DNA of 64,000 bases from Mobula hypostoma (taxonomy: Eukaryota): positions 119,104,001 to 119,168,000 of the forward strand of contig NC_086097.1 of assembly GCF_963921235.1 (NCBI RefSeq), written 5' to 3'. This document shows, piece by piece, positions 340 to 63,600 of this stretch. Below the pieces are notes generated by a model. It was not told the origin of the DNA. It made no database searches and saw only the letters and a list, made by a program, of their open reading frames with translations. Numbering within the stretch: the stretch's first letter is position 1; each line of letters opens with the position of its first letter. A program made the translations under genes and the position numbers.

Positions 340-492
340 GCACACAACATGCTGGAGAAACAAAGCATTTATGGAAAAGAGTAAACAGTTGACATTTTGG
401 GCTGACACCCTTTATCAGGACTGGAAAAAAAAAAGATGAGAAGTCAGACTACAAATGTTGGGGGAGGAAAATCTACAGATTTTCTCCTGTTC
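340..492 (-). mobile_element. Penelope-like element (PLE) terminal-repeat fragment with degenerate hammerhead ribozyme (386-423)
   Basis: Minus strand reads cagtc-CTGATAA-agggtgtcagccc-AAAA-tgtc-aactg, a decayed version of the motif at 4366-4396 and 21884-21921. Confidence 0.65.
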
Positions 493-539
493 GGGTATTT
501 ATCAAAACTTCCCTAAAGTGTCTCAACCAGATTCACCAC

Positions 540-900
540 TGTCTAGTACGGGAATTACAAGGCATCTGACTGCAAGATCCTAAAAAGGATTGTGAGAACT
601 GCTGAGAAGATCATTGGAGTCTTTCTTCCACCCATCCATGATATTCATCAGAACTATATGACCCCCTTATCAGTACCACAAATCCTTTGACTCATTACTA
701 TCAGGCATGAGGTACTATAGCATTAGGACAAGGATTGTTAAGATGGGAAACAGCTTCTTCCCCTAGGCTGTGAGACTACTGAACTCCCTGCCACCGCCAA
801 GATCACATCACATAAGAGAGGCCAATACTGTACAGTGATTTCATTTTTTTAACACGCTGTAAATGCATCTTATTATTTGTTAATTTATTGTTGACAATAT
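540..900 (+). mobile_element. Rex1/Babar-type LINE 3' fragment
   Basis: Degenerate frame YGNYKASDCKILKRIVRTAEKIIG...RMGNSFFP.AVRLLNS, typical of the Rex1/Babar ORF C-terminus. Confidence 0.65.
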
Positions 901-1109
901 TTGCCACCCTTTGAATGAAGAAGTTAACCCAATACATGACCTCTAGTTCAAGTCTCAACCAAGATCAGTGGAAAAAGTCTGCTCGTATTTACCTTACGTA
1001 TACCCTCATAATTTTATCAAATATCCCCTCATCCTCCTACACTTCCCTCTGATTGAAAAACAGTGAGAGCAATGCTAAGCATGCAGGCTGCTTTGCTTTG
1101 TATGATGTT

Positions 1110-1430
1110 GATCTTAAAAGAGTATCATAATTTGTCACATATACCTGTACAGTGAAACATGCAGCAAAAAGCATTGCTTGCATCAAATCAAATCAGCGAG
1201 GATTGTGCTGGGCAGCTTGTAAGAGTCCCCATGCTTCCAGTGCTAACAAAGCATGCCCACAACTCACTATAACCATGACTCTATGTCTTTTGAATATGGG
1301 AGAAAACCGGAGTACCTGGAGGAAATCTATGTGGTCATGGGGAGAACGACAGACTCCTGACACACAGAGGTGGGAATTGAACCCAGATCTTATAGCTAGT
1401 ATTAAGATAATGACTACCATGCTGCCCCAT
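1110..1430 (-). mobile_element. tRNA-derived V-SINE-like element
   Basis: Minus strand has a B-box-like GGGTTCAATTCCC followed by the V-domain-like segment also seen at 56872 and 57715. Confidence 0.55.
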
Positions 1431-2449
1431 CTATGCAACAGCGCTGTCCCATCTTAAGTCCTAAGTGCCTTACTAGCTGCCTTCACCCAAGCAAGTACAC
1501 ATTAACCAATCACTACAGAGACATGTGCCTTCCTAATGATGGAAAACCTTTGGTGTGTGTGGAGATGCTTCAAGATGTCATTTTCCACAAGATACCTGTC
1601 CTCTTAACAGCTCTTGTATTTACTGCATTCGTGTGGCCAGCAAGTTGAGCTGCTAGTTAGTGGTGACCCATTATGTTGATAGAGTGGAACTCAGCAAAGC
1701 TAATGATAGAAAATTTTAAAGGGTAGGTGGTTTCAAACTCGCTTGTCGAAGATGATTGTTGCCTCACACTTTTGTAGGATGAATATAACCTGCTGTTTAT
1801 TAGTCAATATCTGGACTTTGTCCCATACTTGCTGCATGAGAGAGTTGGTAGGTTCATAATCCTAGGTGTTAGCATTTTGAGTGACCTGCCCTGGGCAAGA
1901 AGTAATTATAGATAATACATAGACATAATCATTAAGAAGGCTGCCATCTACTTTCTTAGAAGCTTAAGGAGATTTGGCATGTCTCCAAACAGTACCCAGA
2001 GATTCATTTTCTTGCAGGCATTCATGGTAGAATAAAGAAATACAAATAAATCATTGCAGATGTACACACAAACAAATGTAACCCAGGTTAATTATACCCA
2101 AAGTTGCAATGTTAGAAAGTTCTACCTGCGGAGGGATGAAAATGAGGTTTACTGATTTTAAAGAAAGAGAATTTGAAAAAAACGCTATACAAGGAAAGGG
2201 CGGTCTGGACACAGAACAGACAAGGAGAGAAACACAGCGATGATTAGAAGCTGAAGATACAATGGAGATACAAAAACCGAGGATGAGGAACCCAAGAGAA
2301 AAGATCAGATGGTAATCGAACGTTACCAAGATCAAGATGCACAAACTAGAAGAAGAAAAAGGAGGGAAGGGATGAAGAGAAAGAATGTGAATAAGAAAGA
2401 GAAAGGTGTGAAACAGAGAAGGAATGTATGAAAGAAAAAGAAAGGGGTC

Positions 2450-3056
2450 ATATTATGTCGAGAGAGAGATAAGAGGAAGAAAGGTGTCCAGAGCTGTCAC
2501 AACCACTTACTGCAGTCTCAGCGTGAGTTCCTACAACCACCACGGAGGAGGCTCTAGAACCTGACACTGTTTCACAGCCACAAGTCTCAGCTGCCAAGAA
2601 GAGTGAAACCCCTTGTCAGAAAGATGTTATCCAAGAAGAGGAAAAAATCCTCCACAGTGATGAAATATTTAGCCCTGAATGGGACTATTTAGAGATTTAC
2701 TATGCTGTAGATGCCTGTATATAATAGTTATATTATATAATATACTATTTATATAGTTGAGATGCATTCCACAGTGAGTTGGAGTTTATAACTAAGCAGG
2801 GAGTGTTGTGTATTTAATATTTCATTTATATTTGAGTAATCTTGTATACATAGACATAAGTTGATTAAGCATTCTTGTTTGTTTAAAATATTTCACTACA
2901 GGATATATGTATAAATACATGAATTGCAAATGTAAACATGCTACCAAGTGATACATACTCATCTTGCTAAAAGTAAACTCGAAGTTAGACCTGCATTTCA
3001 AACTTCCATGTCTTCCTTTGAACTAGTTAAATGTTATAAAGTTACCAAACATAACA
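2450..3056 (+). mobile_element. Gypsy retrotransposon 3' end: integrase tail, polypurine tract (PPT) and 3' LTR (2804-3056)
   Basis: Degenerate integrase tail resembling RxYPxRxxNPPQ near 2620-2670; purine tract AAGCAGGGAG directly before TGTTGTG; LTR ends CATAACA. Confidence 0.6.
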
Positions 3057-5502
3057 GGTATGACCTGTACAAAAGGGATGGGTAACCTAAACACGAGGGG
3101 GCCCAATATCCTTGTAGGCAGGTTTGCTAGAACTGTTGGAGAGGTTTCAATCTAAATTGGCAAGGGCTTGGAAAACTGAGTGAAAGGCTGAGAATGGGGC
3201 AGTTTGTATACAAGCAGAGGCAGCATGTAGTGAGACTGTCAGGAAGGAGACACAGATGGTAGGGCAAAATTGCAGTCGGTGGAATGAGTTGCAGTGTAAC
3301 GGGGGACAAAATCGAGAAGGTTGATGAATGCAGGCCTGAAGGTGTTACATTTAAATGCATGCAATATATGAAATAAGGTCGATAATGTTTTAGCGTAGTT
3401 AGAGATTTGTAGGTATGACATCACTGAACTGTAGCTGAAAGGAGATTATAATAATGAGCTTAATATCCAAGGAAACACATTGTATCAAAAGAATAGGCAG
3501 GAAGGCAGAGAGGACGGCATGGGTCTGTTGGTAAAAATTAAATCCTTTGGAAGAGGTGACATACGATCTGAAGAATTAGAATCATTGTGGGTAGAGTTAA
3601 GAAACCGCAAGGGTGAAAAAACCCTGACGGGAGTTATATTCTGAACAGTGGTATGGTCTACAAATTACAAAGGGAAACAGAAAAGGCATGTCAAAAGGGC
3701 AACGTTACAATAGTCATGATCGATTTCAATATGCAGGTAGGTTGCAAAAATCAGATAGGGTCTTGGGAAGCTGAATGGTCTGAGGTAGATAAATCACATA
3801 GACCAGATAGTCGACACCCCAGGGTTCTGAACGATGTGGCTGGAGAGATTGTGGAGGCATTAGTAATGATCTTTCAAGAATCAATAGATTCTGGCAGAGA
3901 TCTGGAGTACTAGAAAATTGCAAATGCCACTCCACCCTTCAGGAAGGGAGGGAGGCAGTAAAAAGGAAATTATAGACCAGTTAGCCTGACATCAGTGGTT
4001 GGGGTAGGTGCTGATTGTTAAGGGTGAGATTTTGAGGTACTTGGAGGTACATAATAAAATAAGCCAAAGTCAGCATGATTTCCTTAAGGGAAAATCTTGC
4101 CTGACAAATATGTTTGAATTCTTTGAAGAAATAATAAAATAAATGACAAAGGAAAATTGTTTGTTGTTGTGTAATTGGGTATTCAGAAGGCTTTTGACAA
4201 TGTGCTGCGTCTGAGGATGCTTAGCAAAATAAGAGGCCACGGTATTATAGGAAAGATACTAGCATAGATAGAGTCACATACATCAAAGTTGCTGGTGAAC
4301 GCAGCAGGCCAAGCAGCATCTATAGGAAGAGGTGCAGTCGACGTTTCAGGCCGAGACCCTTCGTCGACGAAGGGTCTCGGCCTGAAACGTCGACTGCACC
4401 TCTTCCTATAGATGCTGCTTGGCCTGCTGCGTTCACCAGCAACTTTGATGTATGTAGCATAGATAGAGTGTTGGCTGATTGGTGGGAGGCAAAGAGTGGG
4501 AATAAAGCAAGCCTTCTCCGATTGGTTGCCGGTGTCTAGTGGTTTTCTGCAGGGTTTGTGTTTGGAGCCACTTCTTTTTGTGATATATGTCAATGATTTC
4601 AATAATGGTATAGATGGCTTTGTGGCCAAGTTTGCAGATGACACAAAGCTAGGTGGAGGGGCAGGTAGGGTGGCTGTAGAAGAATTTAGACAGATTAGGA
4701 GAATGGACAAAAGTGACAGAGCGAAATCCGTGTCGGAAATTGTATGGTCATTCATTTTGGCAGAAGGAATAAAAGCATAGTTTTTTTTCTAAAGGGGAAG
4801 AAAATTCAAAATCACAAGTGAAAGGGACTTTGGAGTCCTCATGCAGGATTCCCTAAAAGTTAACTTGCAGATTTAGTCGGTAGTGAGGAAGGCAAATGCA
4901 ATATTAGCATTCATTCGAGAGAACTGGAATATATATAAAAATATGCAATGCTGAGGCTTTATAAGGCACTGGAGAGGCCTCACTTGGTCCAATCTGAGCA
5001 GATTGCCCCTTATCTAAGTAAGGATGTAAAGATGCATTAACATTAGAGAGGGTTCAGGGGAAGCTCTCAGGGTTATCATATGAGGAGCATTTGATGGCTC
5101 TGGGCCTGTACGCACTGGACTTTAGAAGAATGAAGGGGGCCTCTCAATGAAACATATAAAAAGTCGAAGGGCCTAGATAGAGTGGATGTTGAGAGCATGT
5201 TCCTATAGTGACGGAGTCTAGGACAAGAGAGCATAGTCTCAGAATAGAAGGACACCTATTTAGAATGGCTATGAGGAGGAATTTCTTTAGCCAGAGGGAG
5301 ATGAACCTGTGGAATTCATTACCACAGATGACTGTGGAAGCTAGGTCATTGGGTGTATTTAAGGCAGAGGTTGATAGGTTCTTGATTAGTCATGGTGTGA
5401 AAGATCATAGGGAGAAGGCTGGAGAATGGAATTGAAAGAAAAATGGATCAGACATGATGAAATGGTGGAGCAGATTCAATGGGACAAGTGGTCTAATATG
5501 CC
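3057..5502 (+). mobile_element. CR1 LINE, decayed (ORF1 end, APE endonuclease, RT, 3' UTR), with internal deletions
   Basis: Frames IVMIDFNMQV, KGNYRPVSLTSVVG, LFVIYVNDFNNGIDGFVAKFADDTKLGG, RRNFFSQREMNLWNSLP; many stops and frameshifts. Confidence 0.9.
4276..4455. mobile_element. Perfect 180-bp palindrome of PLE terminal-repeat sequence inserted in CR1 ORF2 with a 14-bp TSD
   Basis: 4276-4365 is the exact reverse complement of 4366-4455. AGCATAGATAGAGT is duplicated at 4261-4274 and 4456-4469. Each arm contains GACGA-agggtctcggcct-GAAA-cgtc-gactg. Confidence 0.92.
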
Positions 5503-6699
5503 TACAACATACAAACCAAGACTGTCAAACAAGCAATGTGCAAACGAAAACAAACCGTGCTAATACAAATAATAAACAATTAATGTAATAAATAAGTAAA
5601 TGATAAATAATATTTGACTTGGCCAACAACAGTGGTGTTGCCAGCAGACAGCTTTGTGGTGTACCTTTGCTGATGGTGATCATAAAAGACTTGTTTTTGC
5701 TAATCCAAACTGACTGTTCTGTAAATTTTCGGTTTTAGTAGCCCAATATGGGAGATGCTGCCAACTGTGCCTATGTGTCATCTATTAATGAAGTTTCCTT
5801 TATTTTTGCTTTACATGTCTGAGTGTCCCTATGCAACCCGATTTTATTCCTTCAGATTTTGTGAAGTCCATTCAGTACTGAACAGTTATCACATGTTTGA
5901 AAACTCCAAAATGACTGATGTGCTACTGCACAACAATTAGCTGGTCAATTCAGTGCCTATGTTAGTTAGCTGTGGCCTGAAACCTAGCACCCATTAATAT
6001 AAAATAGTAAGGTTAATTTATGAGAATGCTCCATATAAACAAGTTAGCCCTTCTGGCAAGTGTTTCAATCAGTGTCACTGACATATTTTGAAAGGGTCAG
6101 GCATTGGCCCTTCCTTCACTTATTTGGAGATTTATGTCTGTGTGTTTGGTTTCTGTCCCCTTCAGCCTTAATTGATGAACTACACTCATTTGTTCCAATA
6201 CAGTGCCAGTTTGCCCTGATTTAGTGATTTAGCATAACAACAAATTTGTCAAATAAGCCTTTGTTTTCTATGCAAATTGCTATTTGTTACAATTTGGAGC
6301 GGTTTGAGGATATCTATGAGCTTTCCTGCATTTTGTACTGCAGCTTTTCAAAATTCAGTAGCTTTGAAATACATGATTCTTTTATAATACATATGGAGGC
6401 AATACATTTTCAGTGTTCTGTCATTTTCTTCTCCATCTTTAGTGGAAAGTCCATAGGAATTATAAAAGAATGGTGGAAGCACAATTTCTGAAAATGTTCT
6501 ATAAACTCAAAAGTGAATGGAGAGAATCTCCGTGGAACTTGATACCAAATATTTACTTCATATAAAACTTTTCATAAAATGTAGAGTGTAGAATTCAGCC
6601 ATTCTGTCCATCTGTCTCAAGACTACTAGATCCAAAGCAGTTAGTTTTTATAAGTCATCAGAATCAACTCCAATTAACACAATCCACCTTTCTCACCAC

Positions 6700-7075
6700 C
6701 ACTACATGGCAGATTTATTTTCCATCTCAACCCCACTCTCCTGCCTTCTCCCTGTAACCTTTGATGCCCTTGCTAATCAAATATCTATCAATCTCCACTT
6801 TAAATATATCCAGAAACATGGTCTCCACAGCCATCTGTGGCAATGAATTCCACAGATACACTACACTCTCCCTAAATAAATTCATCCTTATCTTTTTTCT
6901 GAAGGGTTGTTCTTCTATTCTGAGACTATATTCTTTGGCCCTAGATTCTCCCACTTTTGGGAACATCCACTCCACAGCCTTTCAATATTCAATATATTTT
7001 AATGAGATCCCTTCCCCTTATTCTGCTGAACTTCAATGAGTACAAGCCTAAAGCCACCAAATGCTGTTCATACAT
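6700..7075 (-). mobile_element. CR1 LINE 3' fragment
   Basis: ORF 6727-6975 (…RESVVYLWNSLPQMAVE…FKVEIDRYLISKGIKGYREKAGEWG) matches the CR1 ORF2 C-terminus at 5208-5435. Confidence 0.85.
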
Positions 7076-7156
7076 GTTTAATTCTGATGTTTTTAATCCA
7101 AGGTTCTTTCTGAAGTAAGAAAGAGGCATAAAGCTTTTTGCTTCACAATTGATTTA

Positions 7157-7448
7157 AAGGCATCCGTTAGTCTTGCGAGACCATGGATCTGCGTCTGGAA
7201 AGTCTTCACTCTCCAGGGCATAGGCCTGGGCAAGGTTGTATGGAAGACCAGCAGTTGCCCATGCTGCAAGTCTCCCCTCTCCACGACACCAATGTTGTCT
7301 AAGGGAAGGACACCAGTGTTGTCACAGAGCAATGTGTGATTAAGTGCCTTGCTCAAGGACACAACACATTCCCTTGGCTGGGGCTCGAACTCACGACCTT
7401 CAGGTAGCTAGTGCAATGCCTTAACCATTTGGCCACGTGCCCGCACAA
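7157..7448 (-). mobile_element. tRNA-head CORE-like SINE with 13-bp TSD
   Basis: A box TGGCCAAATGG, B box GTTCGAGCC, CORE-like GTGTCCTTGAGCAAGGCACTTAA; TSD CACAATTGATTTA at 7144-7156 and 7449-7461. Confidence 0.85.
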
Positions 7449-7750
7449 CACAATTGATTTATTAAGCACTAATGGTACAAAGAAAATTGGAAAAGAACAG
7501 TAACAGGGACCTAAGAATAGTAGTAGAAGGGAAAAAGGAAGCAAGTGTGGCTGGGCAGCCTATTCAGCGTTTTTTATACGCCATAGATAATAAACGTTAT
7601 ACTAAAATTTGTAGAAAAGATAGCTCTATCCAAATAATGCAATACCAGCAGACGCTTCCAGAATCAACAGAATTGTAACCACTGGGACACACAGAACAAT
7701 TGCATATACATACTGTGACCATTAGGAAACATACTAAACAGTTATATATA

Positions 7751-7820
7751 TAGTACTGTACAAAAGTCTCAGGCATCCTAGCTAGATGTATATGTGCCTA
7801 AGAATTTTACACTTTTGCAC
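7751..7820. mobile_element. Small Tc1/mariner-like MITE
   Basis: Imperfect inverted repeat TGTACAAAAGTCTCAGGCA…TGCCTAAGAATTTTACA, next to a TA run. Confidence 0.5.
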
Positions 7821-8039
7821 ACAAACAGGCAATTAATTGCTAAGCTGCAAAGATAATGATAATTAAACAGTCTAATTAACAATTCCCCGCCCCTCCCACC
7901 TTGATTCAAAATCACAACTTTAGAATCATTACAACTGAAAATTCAGAGGCAGATAAACTTGTGGTATCTACATTAATCATAAAATAATCAAAAAATACCT
8001 AACTTAGGAAATACCAAAAGCTATATATTCTTCAAAATA

Positions 8040-9336
8040 TGCATAAGAATATGTCATAATTAGATAGATTAAAAGGCACAATTATGTGAGTTTGAACTAC
8101 TCTATTAATGATCACCTTTATACAAATAAAAAAGATGTGAATTATCGATAAGGCATATCAGGACAATTAATATGACTCTTAATATTGAGTAACCCCAGCT
8201 CCTGAGATCCAATCAAAGAATCCCATCAATCAGACTGACGTATGTATTTTAGATGATTCTTCACCAATATGATCAGACAAAATAGTTATGTCTTCAGATA
8301 TGTCAGGTATATAATACAGCGCCCGTTGCCTACATTTCCCCATCACCACTTAACTGCGAGGAGAAGAACTAACGCCATACGATTTTGAAGAACCATCTCA
8401 TACATGGTGACTATTTCTGTTGTTACTTTTCCCAAGGCATCAACAGCATCATTGCTGACTCTTTCTAAGGCTGCAGCAACATTTTTATTCTCTCTTAGAC
8501 TCCTTGCAATATGATAAAATGGGAATAAAGTTGATGCAAAATAATCTCCTTCTGAAGTCTCTTTTACCTCTGGACTCAGAGGTAAAGGTAAGGTTTGTGT
8601 ATGTCTCATGGCAGGAAGAACATACTCCAAATAACAAATCCTAACCAATTACGTGGTAGTGAGGTGTAGGCTCCATTACCACACATAAACTACGTATTTT
8701 TCCCTGATATTTAGACCATTCCTTATTATTCAACAGAAGCCTAGTTGAATAGAAATATTTTTCTGATGGGATGTTGCCAAAGAGAATTTCAGAGTCACTA
8801 GAACAATGTAAAGCAAAATTGTATAAATTATGCCCTATTGGAGTGATGCCATCTGAACTCAAGCAAAAGGTAGCTTTTATAGTGAACACATAGAAATATT
8901 TAATAGCTTTTTCATGAACAATATATATGCAGTTATAGAGATATCCCAGGACATGATATGAATAGGGTCAGATATGATATGATTCCCTAAATAATTCTGA
9001 TTATAATTACATCATCTTGTTTAAGACAGTTCGTGTAGGGCATAATCATTGTATATTTAGGTCTCCCTTGGGTATTAGTGTCAATATCGCCATTGCTGAA
9101 ATGTTGAAGTAAGAGGGCTCATATTTGATCTGAATCTGCAGGAATGCTGAGCATTGCTGAATATTTTGAAGTGTGCAGTATATATTGACATACCCAACAG
9201 CTATGGCATTAACAGCATCAGCAAATTCATGTGATACACACAATTATACATTGTGAAACATCTCAATAGGTACATTGTGAGTACGGAAGAATGGCAAAGA
9301 TATAATAATAACAAATAATACTGGAGTAAACTTCAT
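8040..9336 (-). pseudogene. env: Retroviral env, gamma-type TM, disrupted
   Basis: Hydrophobic start MKFTPVLFVIISLPF (ATG at 9336); furin-like RGKR at 8560-8571; heptad region then MVLQNRMALVLLLA, then LYIPD and a hydrophobic anchor; multiple stops and frameshifts. Confidence 0.82.
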
Positions 9337-9429
9337 AATGTCCAGCAAATGTTGACTCTATTTGAGGTCTTCTAGCTGGTTAATAATTTTCTCACTGTAG
9401 CCCAGTAGCATAGGCCCAGGATCAGAGGT

Positions 9430-11370
9430 TACTGGCAGATTAACAACGCTCTTGTTGTCCTCACCAGGTACCACTTTCGCACTTTCGTGGCTGGTGTGTA
9501 TCCACCTTTACCTTCGACTTTCACCATTGAGTTGGTAATTAACAGCACCTCATAATGATCTTCCCACCAAGCTCCCCGTGGATTCTTGTGTGTTTTTTTA
9601 ATTAAGACCTGCTCACCAGAAATCAGCATGTATCCTCCCTCTGTTGGATCATTCCACTGCAAGCTGCAGAAACCTGTTGAGAAGCAGATTGGACAGTCTG
9701 GGTTAATTTCATACTATAGTCGACTAAACAGTCTGCCGAAATGTGCAAATCAGCCTCTCTGAGATCAAGGGCTTCCAGCAGTGACATAGTATGACCTGCT
9801 ACTGCCTCGAATAGATGTAGGTTTCTTGCTTGGGGTTGCTCTGATGCGGCATAAACGCATAGAAAGAGCTGTAGGTTCTTCATCATGATACTTAGTCAGT
9901 CATTGTTTGATGGTTTCAATTTTTTCACTTGACTTGTCTGATGACTCTGGATGATGTGGACAATGAAAAGACCATTCAATTTTCATCAGTTGACATAATT
10001 CCTGACAAACAGTCCCAGTGAAATGTGTTCCTTGGTCAGAATCAATATGACATGGCAAGCCCCATTTAGGAATATAATCCTTGATCAGAGCTTTTGGTGT
10101 GTGTGTGTGGCAGTCACTTTTTTGCTGGAATAGCTTCTGCCCATTCTGAAAACTTGTCTAATATTATCAGTACATCTCAGTATCCTTTGACACTTTGGCA
10201 AGGTAACGTAGTCCATTTGTAAGTGTAAAAATGGACTAAGTGAGGCAGGAGCACTTAATTGTGGTAGTTTTTCCACTGCTCTGGATTTGTTTTCTGGCAC
10301 GTCATGCATCGTTCAAATGTTTGCTGAGCCTATGCCCTGACCTTTGGATTCCACCACCAGTGGGAGAATCTACTAATCATCTTTTCCATTCCAATATATT
10401 CTAGGGTGTGTACCTGCTGTGCCAGATAAGAAAGCAATGTAGTTGGAGCTACTAGTCTATGACTAGTGCGATATCTCCATGCTCCATCACTGTTTAACCT
10501 CCCACCATTCTCCATCTAGAACCACTTTTCCTGGTTAGAGGATTGGAACTTCTATGCTCGCCTGTGATACAGAGTACAACTTCATTTCCATAATTCGTGT
10601 TGTGAGTTCACTGCATATGTTCTTGGTATTTCTTCCAATTCTTTGACCTTTTTAGCTTGTTTTCTTCCTTCTTGTGCTGCCGTTTCTGCAATTTCATCCA
10701 CAAATGCATTTCCATGGCTTTCTATGGCAGTCATTTTAGAGCTGCTTTTAATAAACTTTGATACTATAACTTCTGATGGCAGTTGTATAACATCAATGAG
10801 TTCTTGTAATAGTTGAATATTATTGATTGGGGTTCCTACAACCATAAGAAACTTCCATTGTCTCACAAGTCTCCACAGTCATGAACAACTCCAAAAGCAT
10901 ATCGAGAATCAGTGTAGATATTAGCTGATCTTCTTTCTGCCATCGTACAGGCTTCAATAAGAGCTTTCATTTCTGTCTGTTGTACAGAGGTGTCAGGATC
11001 CATGCTTCCTGATGCCAGCATTTCAGTTTCAGAAACAATGGTTCATCTAATCATTCAAATCCCTTTCTCAACCATTGAGCAACCATCAGTGTACACATAT
11101 CTGGCAGATTAATAACCAACAGTGTGCTGTCAGTCTTTGTGCCTTGTGTTAAGGCTGCAATCATGTGTTTCTCTCTGACAAACGGTTTACCTGTGTCAGG
11201 AATTCTTAATACAGGTGCAGTACACAACATCATCTTTAAAGTCCGAAATGCTTTCAGTTGTTCTTCATTAAGAGTTATAGGTTCATCTGAGCGCTTATTG
11301 TCCGTCAGCAGGTTGTTGAGTGGTTGAGCAATAGTTGTTGGATTAGTTGCTAATATATTGATTAGCAACC
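9430..11370 (-). pseudogene. pol: Retroviral pol remnant: RT connection, RNase H, integrase
   Basis: KAFRTLKMMLCTAPVLRIPDTGKPF; IYTDSRYAFGVVH; HGNAFVDEIA; PFLHLQMDY; IPKWGLPCHIDSDQGTHFTG; WEDHYEVLLITNSMVKVEGK. Confidence 0.9.
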
Positions 11371-21022: not shown

Positions 21023-21883
21023 CATATACATACTTTGATAATAAATTTATTTTGCACTTTGAACTTTATTGAAGGCATTGTACTCTTGACAGGTGCATTA
21101 AGGATTGCAGGACTATGGAACATAAACGTTGCAGCCTGTACAGGGCCTTCAGAACACAATATTGAGCTGACCTTTTAACCTACTTTCAGATCAATCTCAC
21201 CCTTCCCTCCTACATAGCCTCCATTTTTCTATGCCTAAGAATTTTTGGAATGCCCCTAATGTATTATTTAAAATATCTCGAAAAACATTGGATATTCAGC
21301 CAGTCTTGCTAATGGTGTGGTGACTTATTGCAGACAGTCTCAATTGTTTCATTTCATCTGGAGTGGATTCAAGTCGTCCTTGATTCTGAGGACTGCCTAA
21401 GAAAAATAATAAGAATATCGGATGAAAATTCTTTTGTGATTGGACTAAAACTGTGTCACGAGGAGATGTAACTTGGAAATATAGCAGTCTTTCTTCCACA
21501 CAGCGTACCTTCAGGAGAGAGTCTGAGAGGATCCTGGAGAAACTCACTTTCCTGACACAATGTTTTATACTTCTTCAACACAAAGATAACAATAAAAAAT
21601 TAACTACCGTTTCCATTGTTATAATCACCAACTTAACATTGTTATAAAGCCAGGTGGATTTACAGAATTACATATTTACAATGGTAGCACATCCCAAGTG
21701 GAATAGCCTATTTGAATATTCAATACTGGTGTCTTTTGCAAAGATCAGATATCCAAAATATAGATGAGGGATTCTGCAAATCATAAACACAAGATATTCT
21801 GTAGATACTGGAAATCTAGAGTAAAACATACAATATACAGGAAAAACTCAGCAGGTCAGACAGCATCTATGGAAAGGAATAAA

Positions 21884-21921
21884 GAGCCAATGTTTCAGGC
21901 TGAGGTCCTTCATCAGGACTG
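21884..21921 (-). ncRNA. Minimal type I hammerhead ribozyme motif in a PLE terminal repeat (21785-21990); activity doubtful
   Basis: cagtc-CTGATGA-aggacctcagcct-GAAA-catt-ggctc: both core boxes intact, short stems I and II, stem III palindrome ACGT changed to ACAT. Confidence 0.6.
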
Positions 21922-22419
21922 GAATGGGAGGGGGAGGAAACCAGAATAAAAAGATGGAGGGAGAGGAAGGAGTACAAGCAGGACAGCTGTACTCCTACCC
22001 CACCCTCACCCAAAATATACCCCTTTTGTTACAGCATTGCAGGATGGGTCTGTGAGAATACAACTAACAAGTAAGAGTGACAAAACAGATTTGTCCCACA
22101 CTGTGTGTTAAATAGCAGGGATACACCTTTAACAGAGTGCTAATTGTAGCAAGAATATTATCAGTCTTCCTCCCCTGTGTAATTTCAATGGGCCAGAATC
22201 AAAATTATCGCGTTAAATTGTGTACAGCTTTTATCCCTTGAAGACTAGTTCTTATTTTAGTTAATTTATACTGTAATTATGCTATCTATAACTGGGGCAT
22301 GTTTGACACTTGATTTATACTGAGATAGCTCATCACCACACAAGAAATCACAGCAGCCTTTGGATGGAAAAGAAAATGTGAAAGAAAAAGTTTATACCCA
22401 GTGACGCCTGATGGGAATG

Positions 22420-28200: not shown

Positions 28201-29779
28201 TGAAGTTCCTTTTGGGGAAGCTGTTGTGTATTATATATTTGAGTTATTTTGTGTATACAGTATTACCTCCAGCTTCTCACTTCATACCCCATCCCCACTA
28301 CCCATCCAGTGCCTACTATCATGATTTGGCTTGTACTTCTTGATCTCCCACCACCTTCATGTTCTAGCTTCGTCCCTGTTCATTCATTTCCATGGATGCT
28401 GCCTAATCAGTTGAATTCCTCCAGCATTTTGTATGTGTTATTCTGTGTACACTTCTTTCTATAGACTTTTGCATTCTTGGGCATTGATGTTTCAATACCA
28501 GCCAGTGATGGTACTCTCCACTGTGCATCTATTGAAGTTTGTCAAAGTTTTTGGTGACGTGCCGAATCTACAAAACCTTCAAAGAAAATAGAGGCACTAC
28601 TTTGTGATATCACTTACAGTATGTGCTAGTCGCAGGAATATGTGAAATAATTTATAATTAATTCGTTTTTCTTGTGAATGCTGCTTGTATGATTCTATGT
28701 ACTTATGTTGCTGAAAGTAAGTTCTTACATTGCACCTGTTAATACATATACCTGTGCATATGACAATAAACTTGGTTTTGTCTTTGACATTTTGCCTATA
28801 GTCTTAACAAGTCCACAGCAGAAGACATTTCATTGGCTTTTCACTCAGCTCTGGAACATCTGAAGAATGAAAATGCATGCAACAGGATGCTCTTCATTGA
28901 CTACAGCTCAGCATTATCATCGCCTCAAAACTAATCCTAAACTTAAGCCGCGATACCTCCCTGTACAACTGGATCCTTGATTTCCTCACTTGCAGACTCC
29001 AGTCTGTACACAGCCCAGAAACTCAAGGCAGTCTATGGTGACTTATCGTACTTAGATAATCACTCAGGAGTTTGCAGTTTGATTTTGACCGGATTGCTCC
29101 ATCAGGAGTTGGCAAAACCATAATGAGCTGAACAGTCTCTTTCTATATTACTTCATTTCTACAGTTTTATGTTATATTACTTTATGATGTGATTTGATAG
29201 GATAAAGGATGCAAGAATGTTGAAGGAAAGGTAGTTATTGGTTTGAAAGCATAATCACAAGTAGACTGGAGATTCCAAAGGTGGATACAGAATGATATAT
29301 TTTCGGCTGTGGAAGTGTGACATGACTCGAGAGGAATCCTGGAAGGTGATGAGTAATGGCTTTATATGTGACTGAGGCAGTGAGAATAGAGAGCTTAAAC
29401 ACATTGAATGGCAAAGGAGAGAAAGGGGAAGGTTGTAAGTTGATGTGGTTGAAGTAAACGATACTGGACAAATGAGCGAGAAAGGACATGCTGATGCTAG
29501 GAGGAAACTTGTGTCAAACTAAAGCAAAGGTAAAAGCCAGATGGATTTTTTTCATGTTGTATGCCAGCTTCAGTCAAGTATTATAAAGTGTTAGAAAAGA
29601 AGTTATGTTTTACGTAATTCTTTGGTTCAAACATAAAACAGGTTGTAGTTGTGCTCTGTTACTGAGAATTATTTATAACCCAAACAACATGGATGTTAGA
29701 AATAGAGCAACCTGGTAACATATTTAAATAAAAATACTTGGACCCATCCTGGACAAAATATATTTATCTATTTATTTAT

Positions 29780-34400: not shown

Positions 34401-34659
34401 AGTCAAGATTGTCTTTAAGTTGTAGGATCAGCTCGGAGTTGAGGTCAGTGAGGTTATCGAAGCTGGCTCTGAAGTATGATCGTTTTAGAGTAATAGCTTT
34501 TCCTGAACTTGGCTTCTGTATCTCTTGCACCATGTTAGTAATGAGAAGAGCGCATGGCCTGGATGGTGGGGTTCTTTAATGATGGATGCTGCGTTCTTGT
34601 GGTAGCGCTAAATAGTGGGAAGGCTTTGGGCTGTGATACACTAGGTTGGAACCACTATA

Positions 34660-35145
34660 TAAACACAAAAGATTCTATAGATGCCGCAAATCCAGAGAAA
34701 CACACACAAAATGCTGGAGGAGCTCAGCAGGTCATGCAACACCCATGAAAAGGGATGAACAGTTGACATTTCAGGAACAAGCAGAATTTCCAGGGGGCCA
34801 AACATTTTAATTTCAACCCCCACTCCAATTCTGACATGTCAGTCCATGGCCTCCTCTACTGCTATGATGAGACCCCTCTCAGGTTGGAAGAGCAACATCT
34901 CATATTCCATCAGGAAGCATCCAACCTGATGGTACAAACATTGATTTCTATAATTCTGGTATTTTTTTCCCACTTCCACTCCCACTTCTTCCATTCCCCA
35001 CACTGGCTCTCTTCTTACCTCTTTTCTTCTTCTTACCTGCCTATAGCTTCCCCCCGATGCTCCCCTTCCTTTCCTTTCTCTCATGGTCCGCTCTCCTCCC
35101 CTTTCAGATTCCTTGTTCTTCAGCCTTTTATCATTTCTACCTACA
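34660..35145. mobile_element. PLE fragment: inverted terminal repeat abutting a GIY-YIG C-terminus
   Basis: 34660-34780 is the terminal repeat in minus orientation; 34800-35145 reads SDMSVHGLLYCYDETPLRLEEQHLIF on plus. Confidence 0.75.
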
Positions 35146-35790: not shown

Positions 35791-37733
35791 AAACATATTA
35801 CTGCAAACATGAGTACATTAAGGTAGTACAATAGGAAAAAGGAGAATGTTACAGTTACAGAGAAAATGCAGTGCATTGTCAAAGCTTTGTATCTTCCGCC
35901 AGATAGAAGGAGAGAGAAGGGATAATGACCAGCGTTGAAGTGGGCTTTGATTATGTTGGCTGCTTTTCTGGGACAGTGGGAAGGCTGCCTTCATGATAGA
36001 CTGGACTACGTTCACACTCTCTGCAATTTCCTGAAATCTCCAGATCTCCAGTAGCAATTAAATCTAAAGTAGTGTAGCTCCCACATTTGTAATGGTTAAT
36101 TATTTATTTCTCACAAAGACTGACTAGCAGTAATTAACATTTATCACATTATTGAAAAAAATCATTTGATGCAGAGGAGACTTGGCTTTCACATCCACTA
36201 CGCAAGAGCAATATCTTCACATCATTCAGTACTGGAGCCTGACAGCCAGGCACTATCTCCATCCAGCTATCAACAATGTGATGCATTACATACTGATGCT
36301 TCCACATTTTGTGGTTAACAACTGAGCGACAGTCCCCAGAAGCATATCTAACAGTGAATGCTATTAGCCACACACTTATTCTGTCAGTAAGCAATGGGTC
36401 TCCATGAGTTATGCTGAAGGACAGTAGCATGCACTACCATCCTCTTAAATAACTGCATTCATACAATTCTAAAGTAAACAAAGATGTATTACATTTCTCA
36501 GCTAATTTTATAGGAATAGTACTACACCACAATTGTTTTCCAGGGCTTATGGGAAATAACTACAGAGTCTCTATGCAAAAATCTGCTATTATGGCAGCTT
36601 GTCTCAACCATGTGGCAAATCTTTAAGAGCAACATGCACACAAAATGTTGGAGAAGTTAAGCAGTTCAGACAGTATCGATGGAAATGTATGAACAGTCAG
36701 CCTTCGGGCCAAGACCCTTCATCTGGTCTCACCAGGCAGGTTTTTACTTTTTTTTATTTCGAGGTACAGCGTGGTAGTTGGCCCTTCCAGCCCACCAAGC
36801 CTCTGTGGCTCTACCTCACCCATGTGAACAATTAACCGACGAACCCGCACGTCTCCCAGGCAGGAGTGAGTTGGAGACAGTTCCTTGTGGATATTAGGCA
36901 CCGGGGTTAAAAAGTGACCGCAGCCTGTTGGGACTTGTCCACCAAGTGGGAGATTGCTCGGATTATTAGTAACTTAGCAAGGACCAATAAAAAGAAGTGA
37001 GGTGTAAGTGGAGCTGCCATTGTGGGAGCATCCATTGTGTGAATGGGCCAGTATTAGAGTGGTCAGGATTTTGGTTGACAGACTTAGGCAAGAATGATCA
37101 GAGGCTGAGGGCGCTGAGTTATTTGGAATCATTTAGTTGATTTTAGAACTTAAGAAGTCGGAACCAAAGGTATAACAAGTGGGCTTTCCCCGGGTGCTCT
37201 GGTTCCTTCCCACAGTCCAAAGAGATACTGGGTGGTCGTTAAGGCAGTGGAATGCTCCTCCTATAAGACGTGGGATTCCCAGCTACCTAATGGCATCCCT
37301 GATGACTCTTCCTGCAGGAAGAGCACCCGACTTCAGCTCCTGACTGACAGGGCCATGTAACTGGAGCGGGAGCTGCTTGCGCCAGGGACCATTCGGGAAG
37401 ATGGAAACATCATAGACAGAGCTTTTACTGACGTGACCACTCCCAGTGTGTAGGCTTCAGAGAGTAGACGGGTGACCAGCAGAAGAGGTATAGGGAGTAT
37501 GCAGTCAAGGCAGGGTTCCCCTTCAGCAATAAGTACATCCCTCTGGATACTGAGGTGCGTAATACCTATCTGGACATGGTAGCAGCAGCCAGGTCAGTTG
37601 TACTGTGGCTGGCTCCTGGGCTCAGCAGGGAAGGCTAAAGTCAGGCAGAGTGATAGTGATAGGAGACTCTGTGGTCGTGAAAGAGACGCCAGGATGATGT
37701 ATTGGCTCCCAGGTGCTAGGGTCCAGGACATCT

Positions 37734-38325: not shown

Positions 38326-38397
38326 ATCTCAGAACGACTGCAGAGTATTCTCAAGAGGGAGGGTGTGCATCCGGTGGTCTTGATTCACAGGGTTGTG

Positions 38398-39570
38398 ATG
38401 ACGTTGGTAGAGAGGGGGAAGAGGTCCTGTACACCGAGTGTAAGGAGATGACATTAGTAGAAGGGGGAAGAGGTCCTGTACACCGAGTGTAAGGAGATGA
38501 CGTTGGTAGAAGGGGGAAGAGGTCCTGTACACTGAGCATAAGGAGATGACGTTGGTAGAAGGGGGAAGAGGTCCTGTACACTGAGCATAAGGAGATGACA
38601 TTGGTAGAAGGGGAAGAGGTCCTGTACACTGAGCATAAGGAGATGACGTTGGTAGAAGGGGGAAGAGGTCCTGTACACTGAGCATAAGGAGATGACGTTG
38701 GTAGAAGGGGGAAGAGGTCCTGTACACCGAGTGTAAGGAGATGACGTTGGTAGAAGGGGGAAGAGGTCCTGTACACCGAGTGTAAGGAGATGACGTTGGT
38801 AGAAGGGGGAAGAGGTCCTGTACACCGAGTGTAAGGAGATGACGTTGGTAGAAGGGGGAAGAGGTCCTGTACACTGAGCATAAGGAGATGACGTTGGTAG
38901 AAGGGGGAAGAGGTCCTGTACACTGAGCATAAGGAGATGACATTGGTAGAAGGGGAAGAGGTCCTGTACACTGAGCATAAGGAGATGACGTTGGTAGAAG
39001 GGGGAAGAGGTCCTGTACACTGAGTGTAAGGAGATGACGTTGGTAGAAGGGGGAAGAGGTCCTGTACACCGAGTGTAAGGAGATGACGTTGGTAGAAGGG
39101 GGAAGAGGTCCTGTACACCGAGTGTAAGGAGATGACGTTGGTAGAAGGGGGAAGAGGTCCTGTACACTGAGCATAAGGAGATGACATTGGTAGAAGGGGA
39201 AGAGGTCCTGTACACTGAGCATAAGGAGATGACGTTGGTAGAAGGGGGAAGAGGTCCTGTACACCGAGTGTAAGGAGATGACGTTGGTAGAAGGGGGAAG
39301 AGGTCCTGTACACTGAGCATAAGGAGATGATATTGGTAGAAGGGGAAGAGGTCCTGTACACCGAGTGTAAGGAGATGACGTTGGTAGAAGGGGGAAGAGG
39401 TCCTGTACACTGAGCATAAGGAGATGACGTTGGTAGAAGGGGGAAGAGGTCCTGTACACCGAGTGTAAGGAGCTGACATTGGTAGAAGGGGGAAGAGGTC
39501 CTGTACGCTGAGCATAAGGAGATGACGTTGGTAGAAGGGGGAAGAGGTCCTGTACACCGAGTGTAAGGAG
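38398..39570 (+). repeat. Minisatellite, 24 copies of a 48-50-bp (mostly 49-bp) unit derived from CR1 ORF1
   Basis: Unit ATGACGTTGGTAGAAGGGGGAAGAGGTCCTGTACAC(C/T)GAG(TG/CA)TAAGGAG; CR1 frame resumes FGKRLKSRTSKAVISG at 39571. Confidence 0.95.
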
Positions 39571-47200: not shown

Positions 47201-49769
47201 CCCAAGATTGCCTTCACAATTGGTCAAGGGTTGCGGCACTTGCACATCGTAGAAAGGGCCTGGCGTCCAGTCTAGGGCACCAATGCATCAGTACTTGGTG
47301 GGGCCCCAATGCAGCAGACAGGAGTGGGACATCCTGGGCCCCTTCCCCAGAACTAATACCAGGATCCACTACATACTCGTGGCCATGGATTACTTCATGA
47401 AGTGGCCAGAGGAGTACACGGTCATGAACCTCCACTGCTGAGAGTCTCGTGGAGGAGTCCTTCTGCTGTTTCAGTCTGCCTGAGGAACTCCACAGTGACC
47501 AACAGTGCACCTTTGAGAGGCAGGTATTTAGTGAGATCTCCAGGCACCTGGGAACCGCCAAAACACGGACTACCTCCCTTCACCCGCAAAGTAATGGGCT
47601 GGTGGAGTGTTTTAACCACAGCCTAGCTACACAGCTAGCCATCCTTGTCAACCAGCACCAGCACAATTGGAATAGCTATCTACCCCTAGTGTTGTGGGCA
47701 TACCGGGCATCAGCTCAGGGGAGCACCAGGTGTACATCGGCTGTGCGCATGTTTGGGTGGGAGCTGCAAACTCTGGTGGATCTGGTGTTTGGCCAGCTGC
47801 CCGATCCAGAGATTCCTGGGGAGACCGGGTTGGAGATCTTGATTCACGATGAAGTTCGGCAGAACCAAAGCACTGCTTGTGGCTGCCAAAAGCAGGCTCC
47901 TGATGCCTGCAGCTGGGGACAGTACTTTTTTGTGGGGACCCGAGTATGGGTCTTCTGCCCCAATCAGGAAAAATGATCTATCCCCCAAGCTTGGAAGCCA
48001 CTAGAAGGGGTTGGGACAGGTGCTCGATTGCATCTCTGATGCAGTATACCAGATGCGGTTGAATGGCAGAAGAGACTGGCTGGCACCATATCTGCCCTTG
48101 GTCACCACCAACCCAGTGAGGCTGAGAGAAGGAGGTGACAGTCTAGGAAGTGCCCGGCCTCTTGCCTCACCAAACAGTCCTGCCCCGGGGGGGGGGGAGC
48201 TACAGACTCCCCCAGCATCTCAGGCAGTGGTGTCAACCACCACTGGGAGTTCGGGACATGGTTTGGACTCTGGGGTTGCCGGAGATGGCTGGCCCATCAA
48301 ATGGGGGTAATGTGGCGCTCCAGGGCCATGAACGACAGCTTGCCCCTGCATTCCTAGCAGCCAGTGATACTCATTGTTCTTATTTTAAGACATATTTAGT
48401 AGAACTATGGTGAGATGTTCAAGTTCATTTATTGCTACATTTTAGCTCGGGTTATACAATTGTTTGCTTATTTGTTCATGTGCCACCCTGAACGTAGCAT
48501 GGGTATGTAATAATCACCTCCCCAGTCTGTATGTGACTTAGTTCTCACCGAGCTATTGTGCTCTGTTTGTTATTGTGCTTGTTGTGATAAAAACAGCAGT
48601 TGAAATAAACGAGCTTTTCACCCCTGTCATCATGGACCAAAGGCTTCCCACAATATAGAAGACTACACCAAAAGTTTTTTCAGATATATCAAGGGTAAAT
48701 GAAAGGTGAGAGATACTAGAGAGGTACTAATGTGATAAGAATAAATGGTGGACAAACTTAATAAGTATTTTGCATCAGGCTCACTCCTGGAAGACACAAA
48801 CTATATGCCAGAAATTCAAGTGTGTCAGAGGGCAGAAGTGAGTGTAGTTGCTATGACTAGATAGAAAGTGCTTGGTAAAATGAAAGATCTGAAGGTACAT
48901 AAGTTACCAGGATCAGATGGACTACACCCTAAGGTTATGAAAGAGGAGACTTCGGTAATGATCTTCCAAAAATCACAAGATTTTGGAATGGTGGCAGAGG
49001 ACTGGAAAAATTCAAATGTTGCTCCACTCTTTAAGAACAGACAGAGGCAGAAGAAAGGAAATTCTAGGTCAGTTAGTCTGACTTCAATAGTTTGAAACAC
49101 GTTGGAGTCTTATTAAGGATGAGGTTTCGAGGTACTTGGAGGCGCATGGTAAAGTAGGGCAAATTCAGCATGGTTTCCTTAAGGGGAATTTTTGCCTGTG
49201 AAATCTGTTGTTATTATTTGAAGAAGTAACAAGGAGGATAAACAAAAGAGAATTGATGGATGTTGTGTACTTGGATTTTCAGAAGGCCTTTGACAAGGTG
49301 CCAAACATAAAGCTGCTTAACAAGATAGAGCCCATGGTATTACTACATGAAAGATATTTGTATGGAAAGAAGATTGGCTGACTGGCAGTAGGTAAAAAGT
49401 GGGAATGAGGGGAGCCTTTTCTGGTTGGCCGCCAGTGACTATTGGCGTTCCGCAGGGGTCAATGCGGAGACAGCTTCTTTTCACGAAGTTCTTCAAAGAG
49501 CTGGATGATGGTATTGATGGCTTCGTGGCCAGGTTTGTGCATGATATGAAGATAGATGGAGGGTCAAGTAGTGTTAAGGAAGCAGGGAGTCTGCAGAAGG
49601 ACTAAGACAGGTTGGTAGAATGAAAAAGAAGAAGCAGATGAAATATAGTGTAGGGAAGTGTATAGTCGTGCACTTTAGTGGAAGGAATAAAGATATAGAC
49701 TATTTTCTAAACAGGGAGCGTTGATAAAGCAGTAGCTGAAGGGAGCCTTTTCCGGTTGACGTCGGGCAG

Positions 49770-59244: not shown

Positions 59245-60289
59245 AACCTCTATGGGTGACATACAAAGCAAATTATATTCCCTGTCCCCCACTATATATT
59301 GTCAATAATAATTTATTGACAATAACACCCAAATTTGTATGCAAATTCATAATTGAGTTGTTGATCCTCAAATTAAACTAATCTATGGAAAATTAAGCTA
59401 ATTATTCAAGTACACAAACATTTAGGATTTTGTCACCAATTTCAATCAAATATGCCCTTGTTCCGCAAGCTTCCATAATAGTTCCTGCCTCTCACTCATG
59501 TGAGCTTGATTTGCTAGATTAGTTAAGATTATCAACATGGTCTTTTTGTTCAATTTTTAAAATTTTTTTTATTTGTTTCATAGTGATGTTTTGATTCAAC
59601 CACTTTTCAACTCTGGGATAAGGTAAATTTAGTTGAATAACATTTCAGCATGTTCCAAATCTACTCTTCATCATGTGTTCTGTGATTGGTTGTGCGTAGA
59701 ATTGCTCTGGACTTCAGCAGGAAATTAGCCTTGCTTCATGCTGTGTTTTGAATAACCCTACAACAGTTATATACACAAGATGTTCTGCAGATTCTGCAAA
59801 TCCAGAATGTTGGAGAGACTGGTTCATTTCTTTTGTGTATCACTTATTACATGATGCATCATATGCTAATTTCAGCAAAGAGGGCCTCTCTTACTTTATA
59901 TTAATCATATGTACTTTATTGGTCTATGATTCCATATTGATTTCGATCCTTTTTCAATGACTGTTGCAAAGGGCTAAACACAATAGCAACATCAGAAGGT
60001 AATCATATGTAATACCATACTGTCCTTCAGATAGGCCCAAGCTCTGTAATATAATCAGGTTTTGGTGCATTAAAACTTGCCTCCATCTTTTCCCTTCTCT
60101 AGTTATAGTTATTTGGATCAACCTTCAAGGCACTTCTTTTTTGTGAAATATGCATTGACTCACACATAGTCTAAAGAGAGCTTTTGACATTTAAGGGGAA
60201 TATTCACTCCATCATATGCGTGCAGGGCAAAGAAAAGAAAACTGTATAACGTAATCCCATATTTCAGCAGTTGTTGCAGATCACATCTC

Positions 60290-60699: not shown

Positions 60700-63600
60700 T
60701 CAGTGGTGACAATAGAGCTTTACCAAGAGGGATTTCTCACAGGATGGCGGTGGTTATTTAAAAAGGGAGCTTCGTGAGTGTTTGTCAGATAGTAGAGAGC
60801 ACCCCTGTGGCAATCCATCTCAATAATCGTTATCTCATTTTGGATGCTTTTGAGGGGGGTGACGTGACAGAGGATGACCATGGTGATTAGGTCTCTGGTA
60901 CTGAGCCTAGTTCTGTGGTGCAGAAGGGAAAGAAGAAGACAAGGAATATGGTAGTCATAGGGGATTGCATAGTTAGAGGAACAGACAGGAGGTTCTGTCA
61001 GCATGATAGATATATCCAAGTGGTGTGTTGCCTCCCAGGTGCCAGGGTACGGGATGTCTTGGATCGGGTGCAAAGTATTCTGAAGGGAGAGAGTGAAAAG
61101 CCAGAAGTCTTGGTACACATGGTACACGTTGGTACCAATGACCTAAGTAGAAAAGGAGGGGGTCCTGAAGAGAGAATTCAGGGAGAGAAAATAGGATCTC
61201 TAGGGTAGTAATCTCGGGATTGCTGCCTGTTCCATGTGCTAACGAGTGTAAGAATAGCATGATTAGGAATATTAATGCGTGGCTGAGAGACTGGTGTAGG
61301 GGGCAGGGCTTAGGGTTCCTGGACCATTGGAGCATCTTCTAGGGGAGGTATGACTTGTACAAAAAGAACAGGTTACACCTGAACCCAAAGGGGTCCAATA
61401 TCCTAGCAGGCAGGTTTAATAGAGCTGTTAGAGAGGGTTTAAACTAATTTGGCAGGGGGATGGGAACCAGAGTGATAGGGCTGAGGAAGGGGAAAACAGA
61501 AATATATCAAAGATAGCGTACAACAGAGATGATAGAAAGGAAAGGCAGGAGATGAGGCATAATCACAGCCAGTGGGATGAATTACAGGGCAATAAAGGCA
61601 TGGTACAGTTAAAACAGAAAGTAACAAATACTGGACTGAAAGTGTTGTATTTGAAAGCATGCAGCATAGGGAAAAAAATGGACAATCTTGAAGTTCAGCT
61701 ACAAATTGACAAATATGACATTGTGGCCATCTCCAAAACTTGGCTAAAGGTTGACTGCCATTGGGAGTTGAATGTGCAAGGATATACGGTGTATCAGAAA
61801 GATAGGCTAGTAGTCAAAGGGGGTGGTGTGGCAATGACAAGGGTATAAGGACCCTAATGGCAGCTGTATACAGGCCTCCAAATAGCAGCAGGGATGTGGA
61901 TTACAAATTACAGCAGGAGATAGAAAAGGCATATCAGAAGGGCAATATCATGATAATTTTTGGAGATTTTAACTTGAAAGTGGATTGGAAAAACCAGGCC
62001 AGTACTGGACCTCAGGAGAGAGAATCTGTAGAAGGTTTAAGGGATAGCTTTTTAGATAGCTTGTTGTTGAGCTCACTAGGGGATTGGCTGTGCTAGATTG
62101 GATGTTGTGCAATGATCCAGAGTGATAAGAGAGCTTAAGGTTAAGGAACCCTTGGGGAACAGTGATCACATTATGATTGAGATAACTTTGAAATTTGAGA
62201 AGAAGAAGCTAAATTCCAATGTGTTAGTATTTCACTGGAAGAAAGGAAATTACAATGGCATGAGAGGGGAATTGTCCAAGGTTGACTGGAAAGGACACTA
62301 GCAGGAAGGACAGCAGAGTAGCAATGTCTGGAGTTTCAGAGAAAAATGAGGAAAGTGCAAGACAGATATATTCTAACGAAGAAGAAATTTTCAAATGGAA
62401 GAAGGACACTATCGTGTCTGACAAGTGAAGTAAAAGCGAAAAAGAGGGCATACGAGGAAGCCAAATCTAGTGGGAAGATAGATTATTGGAAAGCTTTTAA
62501 AAACTTCCAGAAGGAAACTAAGAAGATCATTAGGAAGGAAAAGATGAATTATGAAAGGAAGCTGGCGACTAATATCAAAGATACTAAAAGCTTTTTTAAG
62601 TACAAACGTGTATATAAGGAGTAAAAGGGAGTTGAGGGTAGATACAGGACCAAGAGAAAATTATGCTGGAGATATTCTAATGAGAGATGCAGGGATGGCA
62701 GAGGAACTGAATGCGTATTTTGCATCAGTCTTCACAGTAGAAGACATCTGCAATATACTGGACATTCAAGAGTGTCAGGGAAGTGAAGTACATGCAGTGA
62801 AAATTGCAACTGAAAAGGTGCTCAGGAAGCTTAATGGTCTGAGGGTGGATACATCTCCTGGACCTGATGGAATGCACTCTTGGTTCGGAAGGAAGTAGCT
62901 AGAGAGTTTGCGGAGGCAATAACAATAATCCTTCACAAATCGATAGATTCTGGCATTATACCGGATAACTGGAAAATTGCAGATGTTACTCCACTATTTA
63001 AGAAGGGTGGGAGGCAGCAGAAAGGAAACTATAGACCTGTTAGCCTGACATCAGTGGTTGGGAAGTTGTTGGAATCAATTGTTAGGGATGAGATTATGGA
63101 ATACCTGGAAGCACATGACAAGATAGGCCAAAGCCAGCATGGTTTCTTGAAAGGAAGATCCTGCCTGACTAATCTACTGCAATTTTTGAGGAAATTACAA
63201 GCAGTGTAGACAAAGGAGATGCAGTAGATATGGTGTACTTGGATTTTCAGACCTTTGACAAGGTGCCGCACATGAGGTTGCTTAGCAAGATAAGAGCCCA
63301 TGAAATTACAGGGGAGTTACTAGCATGGGTGGAGAATTGGGTGATTGGCAGAAAACAGACAGTGAGAATAAAGGGATCCTACTCTGGCTGGCTGCTGGTT
63401 ACCAGCGGAGTTCCACAAGGGTCGTTTGGGACCGCTGCTTTTTAAGATGTATGTCAAAAGTTTGGACTACGGTATTAATGGATTTGTGGCTAAATTTGGC
63501 AATGATACAAAGATAGGTGGAGGAGCAGGTAGTGCTGAGGAAACAGAGAGCTTGCAGATAGACTTAGATGGTTGAGGGGAATGGGCAAAGAAGTGGCAAA

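Follow-up and report, generated by a model that had tools for sequence, protein, structure and literature searches.

A spacerless 180-bp palindrome in Mobula hypostoma, most likely a minimal head-to-head insertion of two Penelope-like element ends

The palindrome and its insertion site

The window (the whole 64-kb stretch of DNA that was analysed) contained two 90-nt arms, 4276-4365 and 4366-4455, which were exact reverse complements with zero spacer. The centre of the palindrome, TTCGTC/GACGAA, lay at 4365/4366, and its unspaced sequence in the assembly was TTCGTCGACGAA. The original prediction of two 90-bp arms around this centre, free of mismatches and loop, was matched in full. The runner-up spacerless palindrome in the 64 kb had arms of only 10 nt, and no second copy of the 180-mer was found in the window. 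Neither a promoter nor an ORF was found within the palindrome. The 180 nt held 11 CpGs with an observed/expected ratio of 0.86, above both flanks (0.42 and 0.25), and the CpGs could be regarded as intact, as had been proposed. The hexamer GTCGAC occurred at 4337, 4363, and 4389, in steps of 26 nt; three of its eight occurrences in the window lay in the palindrome. The palindrome centre remade the heptamer CGTCGAC, which also lies across the predicted cut site of the ribozyme at a distance of 26 nt. The features of the locus are listed in Table 1.

Table 1. Coordinates of the palindrome, the target site duplication (TSD), and the host element in the window
Feature	Position	Strand	Remarks
Left TSD copy	4260..4274	+	15 nt; 14 nt if T4455 is assigned to the arm
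Lone C outside TSD and palindrome	4275..4275	+	Likely non-templated or a one-base slip at the cDNA start
Left arm, inverted 5'-truncated tail-less Penelope-like element end	4276..4365	-	Arm comparison, family contigs, older copies
Right arm, sense 90 nt, from hammerhead G5 to ~40 nt before the end of older tailed copies	4366..4455	+	
Truncated minimal hammerhead	4366..4396	+	Sequence, family upstream letters, layout from the available text of PMC4209133
Mirror copy of the truncated hammerhead	4335-4365	-	Reverse complement of 4366-4396
Head-to-head junction, without spacer and without microhomology to family sequence	4360..4371	.	
Right TSD copy	4455..4469	+	Contig X2 record 16 (4432-4500), 0 differences
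Host decayed CR1-like LINE, broken in the RT-coding region	3823..5480	+	Approximate; start may be further left

The DNA fold of the palindrome had an energy of -123.7 kcal/mol (z = -31), and none of 200 shuffled sequences was equally stable. The RNA was predicted to fold into a single 88-bp stem, and the computed energy of a perfect 90-bp RNA duplex was -187.5 kcal/mol. Long perfect palindromes are described as fragile and able to form hairpins and cruciforms (PMC7999016, available text). The formation of a cruciform or of dsRNA by the palindrome is accordingly a prediction from these models. A microRNA precursor was considered and rejected: all six Rfam hairpin matches were below threshold (the best, MIR6136, scored 66.1 bits with 99 required) and were read as generic hairpin matches.

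The palindrome was flanked by an exact direct repeat. The 14-mer at 4261-4274 was found again at 4456-4469, and the chance of such a match at a fixed place was about 8e-9. The full repeat was 15 nt (4260-4274 and 4455-4469), with T4455 common to the end of the right arm and the start of the repeat, and C4275 belonged to neither repeat nor arm. The predicted 14-bp TSD was therefore duplicated exactly as claimed, although the true repeat is one letter longer and the extra C4275 had no place in that claim. When the insert and one repeat were removed, the sequence aligned gap-free at the site with two CR1-like paralogues in the window, one at ~49110-49574 (73% identity) and one from 63078 (70% identity). 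The paralogue at 62868 gave a weak RVT_1 match (E 1.7e-6), just below the Pfam cut-off. The host LINE, which we take to be a CR1, was thus interrupted at this point, and the predicted insertion inside an old CR1 was borne out by the collinear flanks. Together with the high-copy family sequence of the arms, the 15-nt repeat and the gap-free empty site upheld the reading of the locus as a TSD-flanked insertion of a Penelope-like element (PLE) end.

The age of the insertion was estimated from its arms. There were 0 differences in 104 paired positions, which gave a 95% divergence ceiling of 2.8%, assuming no arm-to-arm conversion. The flanks of this species differed from those of organism B at 4 of 247 nt (X5). 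The claim that the insertion is very young agreed with the high CpG content; it rests mainly on that content, because the 2.8% ceiling exceeds the divergence from organism B.

Four public runs were compared over 3900-4850; X1 and X2 represented one sample of organism A and may come from the assembly's own sample. The organism A flank contigs showed 0 differences from the assembly. A 69-nt contig (4432-4500) crossed the right junction with 0 differences, linking the arm, the duplication, and the flank; its arm portion measured 24 letters, short of the 31 that the bridging rule requires. Contigs broke off in the arms, and the centre and the left junction were not among the 32 contig pieces shown of ~146,000. 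For organism B, in which both flanks were present at ~98%, no contig or joint crossing the site was found among those shown (the best 15 of 483 joints). Joints from 4272/4273 to 4485 were considered as an empty allele and were attributed instead to CR1 paralogues, as they had short sides and came from several contigs and all four runs, and X1 and X2 contigs ending at 4270, considered as heterozygosity, were explained by shared CR1 words.

The summed depth at 4364 was 405-9,732, compared with 1-6 million in the arm bins. These depths are not a copy number: X1 and X2, from one sample, differed 24-fold at this position, and palindromes may be depleted. The low depth hints that the exact centre is not abundant and was not counted as evidence. 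The exact centre junction had 0 matches in metagenome contigs, which do not cover vertebrate genomes, and the exact family motif had 0 matches in metagenome, viral, and prokaryote contigs of the same kind. The blank scan for the centre says nothing on copy number because the family motif was absent there too.

The arm family, its hammerhead, and older copies

The arm sequence was high-copy in all four runs, and the family sequence ran on past both arm ends. Contigs passing 4365 continued with AGGACT in 4/4 runs (31-57 records each), and X6 contigs entering at 4366 ended in ...GTCCT. The AGGACT continuation indicates that the family has GTCCT before GACGA. An older copy in the window at 21916 (minus strand) read CAGTC-CTGATGA, in agreement with this result. 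The hammerhead core was complete in the family contigs and in the 21916 copy and truncated in the palindrome. The hammerhead of the palindrome could thus be described, as originally proposed, as the family consensus minus CT.

The segment 4366..4396 was laid out as GACGA, stem II, GAAA, a palindromic stem III (ACGT), and the 3' strand of stem I, with the cut predicted after 4391. C3, U4, and the 5' strand of stem I were absent. The arms broke off at the 5' edge of the core, before G5, which placed the fold point in the hammerhead core as had been stated. The palindrome had no intact C3-U4-G5-A6-N7-G8-A9 box with stem I, and it failed in this respect as an active minimal hammerhead. In PAc, a change of C3 abolishes cleavage (PMC11167929, available text). 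The motif in the palindrome is predicted to be dead, because C3 is missing and because the transcript is modelled to fold as an 88-bp stem.

Both arms carried the same minority letter of the family at 4312/4419. This is consistent with a single source template and is just as compatible with fold-back copying. At 4333, a T-to-C variant of the family accounted for 22-26% of the summed depth in organism A and for <1% of that in organism B, a hint of subfamily expansion specific to one lineage.

Older copies carried an outer extension of ~40 nt (21783-21822, 34659 on, and 59769-59806), which was missing from both arms. A tail of 30-40 bp on one end is optional in PLE insertion units (PMC3846280, available text); its absence from both arms therefore does not exclude PLE membership. 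Diverged older copies of a related end module were observed at 21783-21925 (minus strand), 28376-28444, 36637-36729, 364-426, and 59769-59806, the last of which matched the 38-nt tail part only.

A putative link to a coding sequence came through an older relative of the arm. Its end module, inverted and tailed, lay at 34659-34775 and stood head-to-head with the C-terminal end of a GIY-YIG-type ORF on the sense strand (window 34659-34940). Over 46 aa, the adjoining peptide shared 67% identity with the C-terminus of a ray protein (P0001), which has an RT-type YIDD motif and a weak Pfam GIY-YIG match (E 4.6e-4, under the cut-off). The path from arm to ORF was indirect and took two steps, first to an older copy with 71% identity and from there to another with 74%. 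No second arm of this older fragment was found within 1.2 kb, and a pyrimidine-rich stretch followed its ORF end. A six-frame motif search of the window found no intact GIY-YIG core, and the 39-aa GIY-YIG-type fragment itself gave no Pfam match. Pfam analysis of 24 of the 40 window ORFs of at least 110 aa gave three weak matches.

Junctions of the family and the origin of the palindrome

The best-supported 15 of 483 joints were analysed, and three CR1 paralogue joins were set aside. The other 12 of the 15 shown were head-to-head joins of two arms. After mirror folding, the 12 joins gave 11 distinct junctions, all different and all asymmetric. One arm was 88-90 nt long in seven of the 11, and both arms in none; near-symmetric junctions may be under-displayed, and 0/11 is no rate. 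In another set of 12 displayed rows, nine reached 4365/4366 head-to-head with just 1-5 extra family letters, and two of these nine carried 2-3 further non-family letters. Two of the remaining three rows represented one join with a variant core, and the third was a different joint type. Part of the pile-up at 4366 stems from the reference itself, but the arms in these rows run only 1-5 family letters further. Head-to-head joining near the 5' edge of the ribozyme is routine for this PLE family. The shorter arm measured 32-36 nt in 6/11 distinct junctions (window 4307-4311 / 4420-4424), suggesting a preferred stop or joining point.

A microhomology of 3 nt was present in 4/12 joins shown and absent from the palindrome's own join. 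In the enumeration of possible joins, GTC/GAC pairing gave 90-nt arms plus a spacer of AG or CT. Eight joins near the core had 3-nt microhomology, and two of them gave exactly 90-nt arms with such a spacer. The observed join had 0 microhomology. The proposed template switch at GTC/GAC microhomology was not supported, since it would leave a 2-nt AG or CT spacer and the observed join has none. A junction at the ribozyme cut site was also rejected, as the arms would then be ~64 nt.

The palindrome is very probably a head-to-head insertion of two PLE ends. The route as a whole is less firm: a two-ended target-primed insertion, with a blunt join of two identical 5'-truncated cDNAs, is somewhat favoured. 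A GIY-YIG endonuclease would nick both target strands 14-15 nt apart, the distance given by the duplication. Each nick would then prime a cDNA at the same inner RNA start, as suggested by PAc in vitro. For PAc, nicking and extension occur on both target strands with internal start sites in common, and they do not depend on hammerhead cleavage (PMC11167929, available text). Double nicking and extension of this kind would explain why the target is duplicated and why the two arms have one outer end. The arms would share their end base and lack a tail because both cDNAs were primed from the same inner start site. Both cDNAs would halt at the 5' edge of the hammerhead core, the usual stop of the longer family arms in the displayed junctions, which would account for the inner ends. 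The two 3' ends may then join with no microhomology, or be bridged by three bases copied from the internal GTCGAC, and the gaps would be filled. For exact symmetry at both ends without microhomology, a coincidence or an extra step is needed.

Several other origins were weighed against this route. In an unlikely though far from negligible one, a single cDNA folded at GTC-AG-GAC or at a slipped GTCGAC and was copied back to its start, with the loop bases lost; the family and the one-off nature of the event would be unchanged, and only the chemistry would differ. Such self-priming accounts for the identical arms, the shared minority letter at 4312/4419, and a fold point at a short inverted repeat, and it has been proposed for junction palindromes (PMC3846280, available text). 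However, GTC/GAC pairing retains AG or CT, the copy must stop exactly at the border of cDNA and target and not enter the duplicated target, and the added base C4275 differs from what run-on would give. Rather improbable is annealing of GTC and GAC around a 2-nt spacer that was lost later, by germ-line hairpin-tip processing or by base-calling or polishing. The two enumerated joins with 90-nt arms and an AG or CT spacer are compatible with it, as are the fragility of long perfect palindromes (PMC7999016, available text) and the position of the centre outside the 32 contig pieces shown of ~146,000. It nevertheless requires a precise 2-nt deletion, and no base shown of the flank and right-junction contigs departs from the assembly. 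Loss of a spacer is also disfavoured because hairpin-tip repair would generally be expected to create asymmetry and not to remove it.

There is a small chance that the 180-mer is a self-contained palindromic unit which the Penelope enzyme copies in one piece, or the mark of a distinct joining step that gives perfect palindromes at a fixed point of the hammerhead core. Such a step may consist of cDNAs bridged by GTCGAC-templated bases or of a covalently closed hairpin intermediate. If either were true, the exact centre would recur at many loci with different TSDs. It is very unlikely that the 180-mer is one of a small family of non-coding palindromes which the PLE enzyme copies as units. The perfect symmetry at both ends, the tail-less arms, and the high CpG content agree with such a family, and cis-acting pLTR ends suffice for trans mobilisation in rotifers (PMC3846280, available text). 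Against it, all 11 distinct junctions displayed differ and none is symmetric, the window has a single copy without promoter or ORF, the core lacks the C3 needed for PAc cleavage (PMC11167929, available text), and a 90-bp RNA duplex would likely bury the start site. The claim of a tiny mobile palindromic family was thus not sustained. An assembly or sequencing artefact of the whole palindrome is hardly credible. The centre and the left junction are missing from the contig pieces shown; fold-back artefacts, however, mirror the flank, while the flanks here are direct and CR1-collinear with an exact 15-nt duplication, and the 69-nt contig that covers arm, duplication, and right flank agrees with the assembly throughout (0 differences). 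The earlier choice between a one-off switch and a tiny family was therefore half right: a one-off event is the most likely, and neither the GTC/GAC switch nor the family was supported.

By the two-ended target-primed route, the product is predicted to be an inert dead end, with no ORF and a hammerhead without C3 and U4. Its sole likely effect would be local fragility through a hairpin or cruciform.

Comparison with known elements

The published systems were compared through the available text of the papers cited in this section. Head-to-head inverted pLTRs, junction palindromes, and TSDs of 8-10 bp are described in PMC3846280. PMC8557442 and PMC8969392 cover tails and truncated partners in inverted orientation, and PMC4209133 reports opposite-strand min-HHR pairs 100-700 bp apart.

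The palindrome resembled the head-to-head inverted-pLTR units of EN+ PLEs, such as Pen2a_Av and Pen3a of Adineta vaga (Arkhipova et al. 2013, PMC3846280; Craig et al. 2021, PMC8557442), in its head-to-head 5'-truncated copies within one TSD and in having a palindrome at the inverted junction. It differed from these units in that it has no ORF or internal body, both copies are cut at the same base, and there is no spacer or overlap. Its TSD was 14-15 bp, compared with 8-10 bp in the rotifer cases, and a 30-40 bp tail was found on neither side.

The hammerhead remnant was similar to the min-HHR type-I motifs of metazoan PLEs (Cervera and De la Pena 2014, PMC4209133), with a GA-N-GA core remnant, an extra base after A9, a G-C-closed stem II, GAAA, a palindromic 2-bp stem III, and close opposite-strand motifs. 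Unlike min-HHR, the palindrome has neither C3 and U4 nor the 5' strand of stem I, and its two motifs abut, whereas those described are 100-700 bp apart. As in PAc, the Poseidon element of Anolis carolinensis (Frangieh et al. 2024, PMC11167929), extension on both strands would give one outer end. The target of the palindrome, unlike that of PAc, is no obvious ATT or AT-rich site, and cDNA joining is not part of the PAc result in the text available.

Non-LTR retrozymes (bioRxiv 10.64898/2026.07.22.740005) are likewise short, non-coding, PLE-derived, and related to type-I hammerheads. They are head-to-tail tandem units with complete hammerheads, whereas the palindrome is head-to-head with a broken core. 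No tandem head-to-tail array with complete HHRs was found at the locus, and a retrozyme was ruled out by the head-to-head arms, the broken cores, and the missing array.

A TSD, a head-to-head 5'-truncated inverted copy, and, in the family, a min-HHR in the terminal module were all found, as in EN+ PLE insertion units. The palindrome is therefore most likely best filed as a minimal head-to-head PLE insertion, of which the exact symmetry alone is unusual. No report of a spacerless minimal PLE palindrome in cartilaginous fish was found in the open-access literature, a body that leaves older PLE papers and supplements outside. The palindrome illustrates a known PLE insertion pattern cleanly and in minimal form. 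With the same starts, the same stops, no tail, and no microhomology, it places a modest constraint on the unsolved last step of PLE integration, and it is a natural test of the survival of a GC-centred perfect palindrome in a vertebrate germ line. Recurrence of the exact centre at many loci would suggest a previously undescribed mobile unit or joining by a fixed chemistry, of interest to retroelement specialists.

Two further observations were made. A predicted ray ATP synthase subunit c isoform (P0002) ended in the same PLE GIY-YIG C-terminal peptide, which represents either exonisation or an annotation chimera. A minisatellite at 38397-39570 contained 24 copies of a 49-bp unit with 94% matches and had higher-order periods of 195 and 244.
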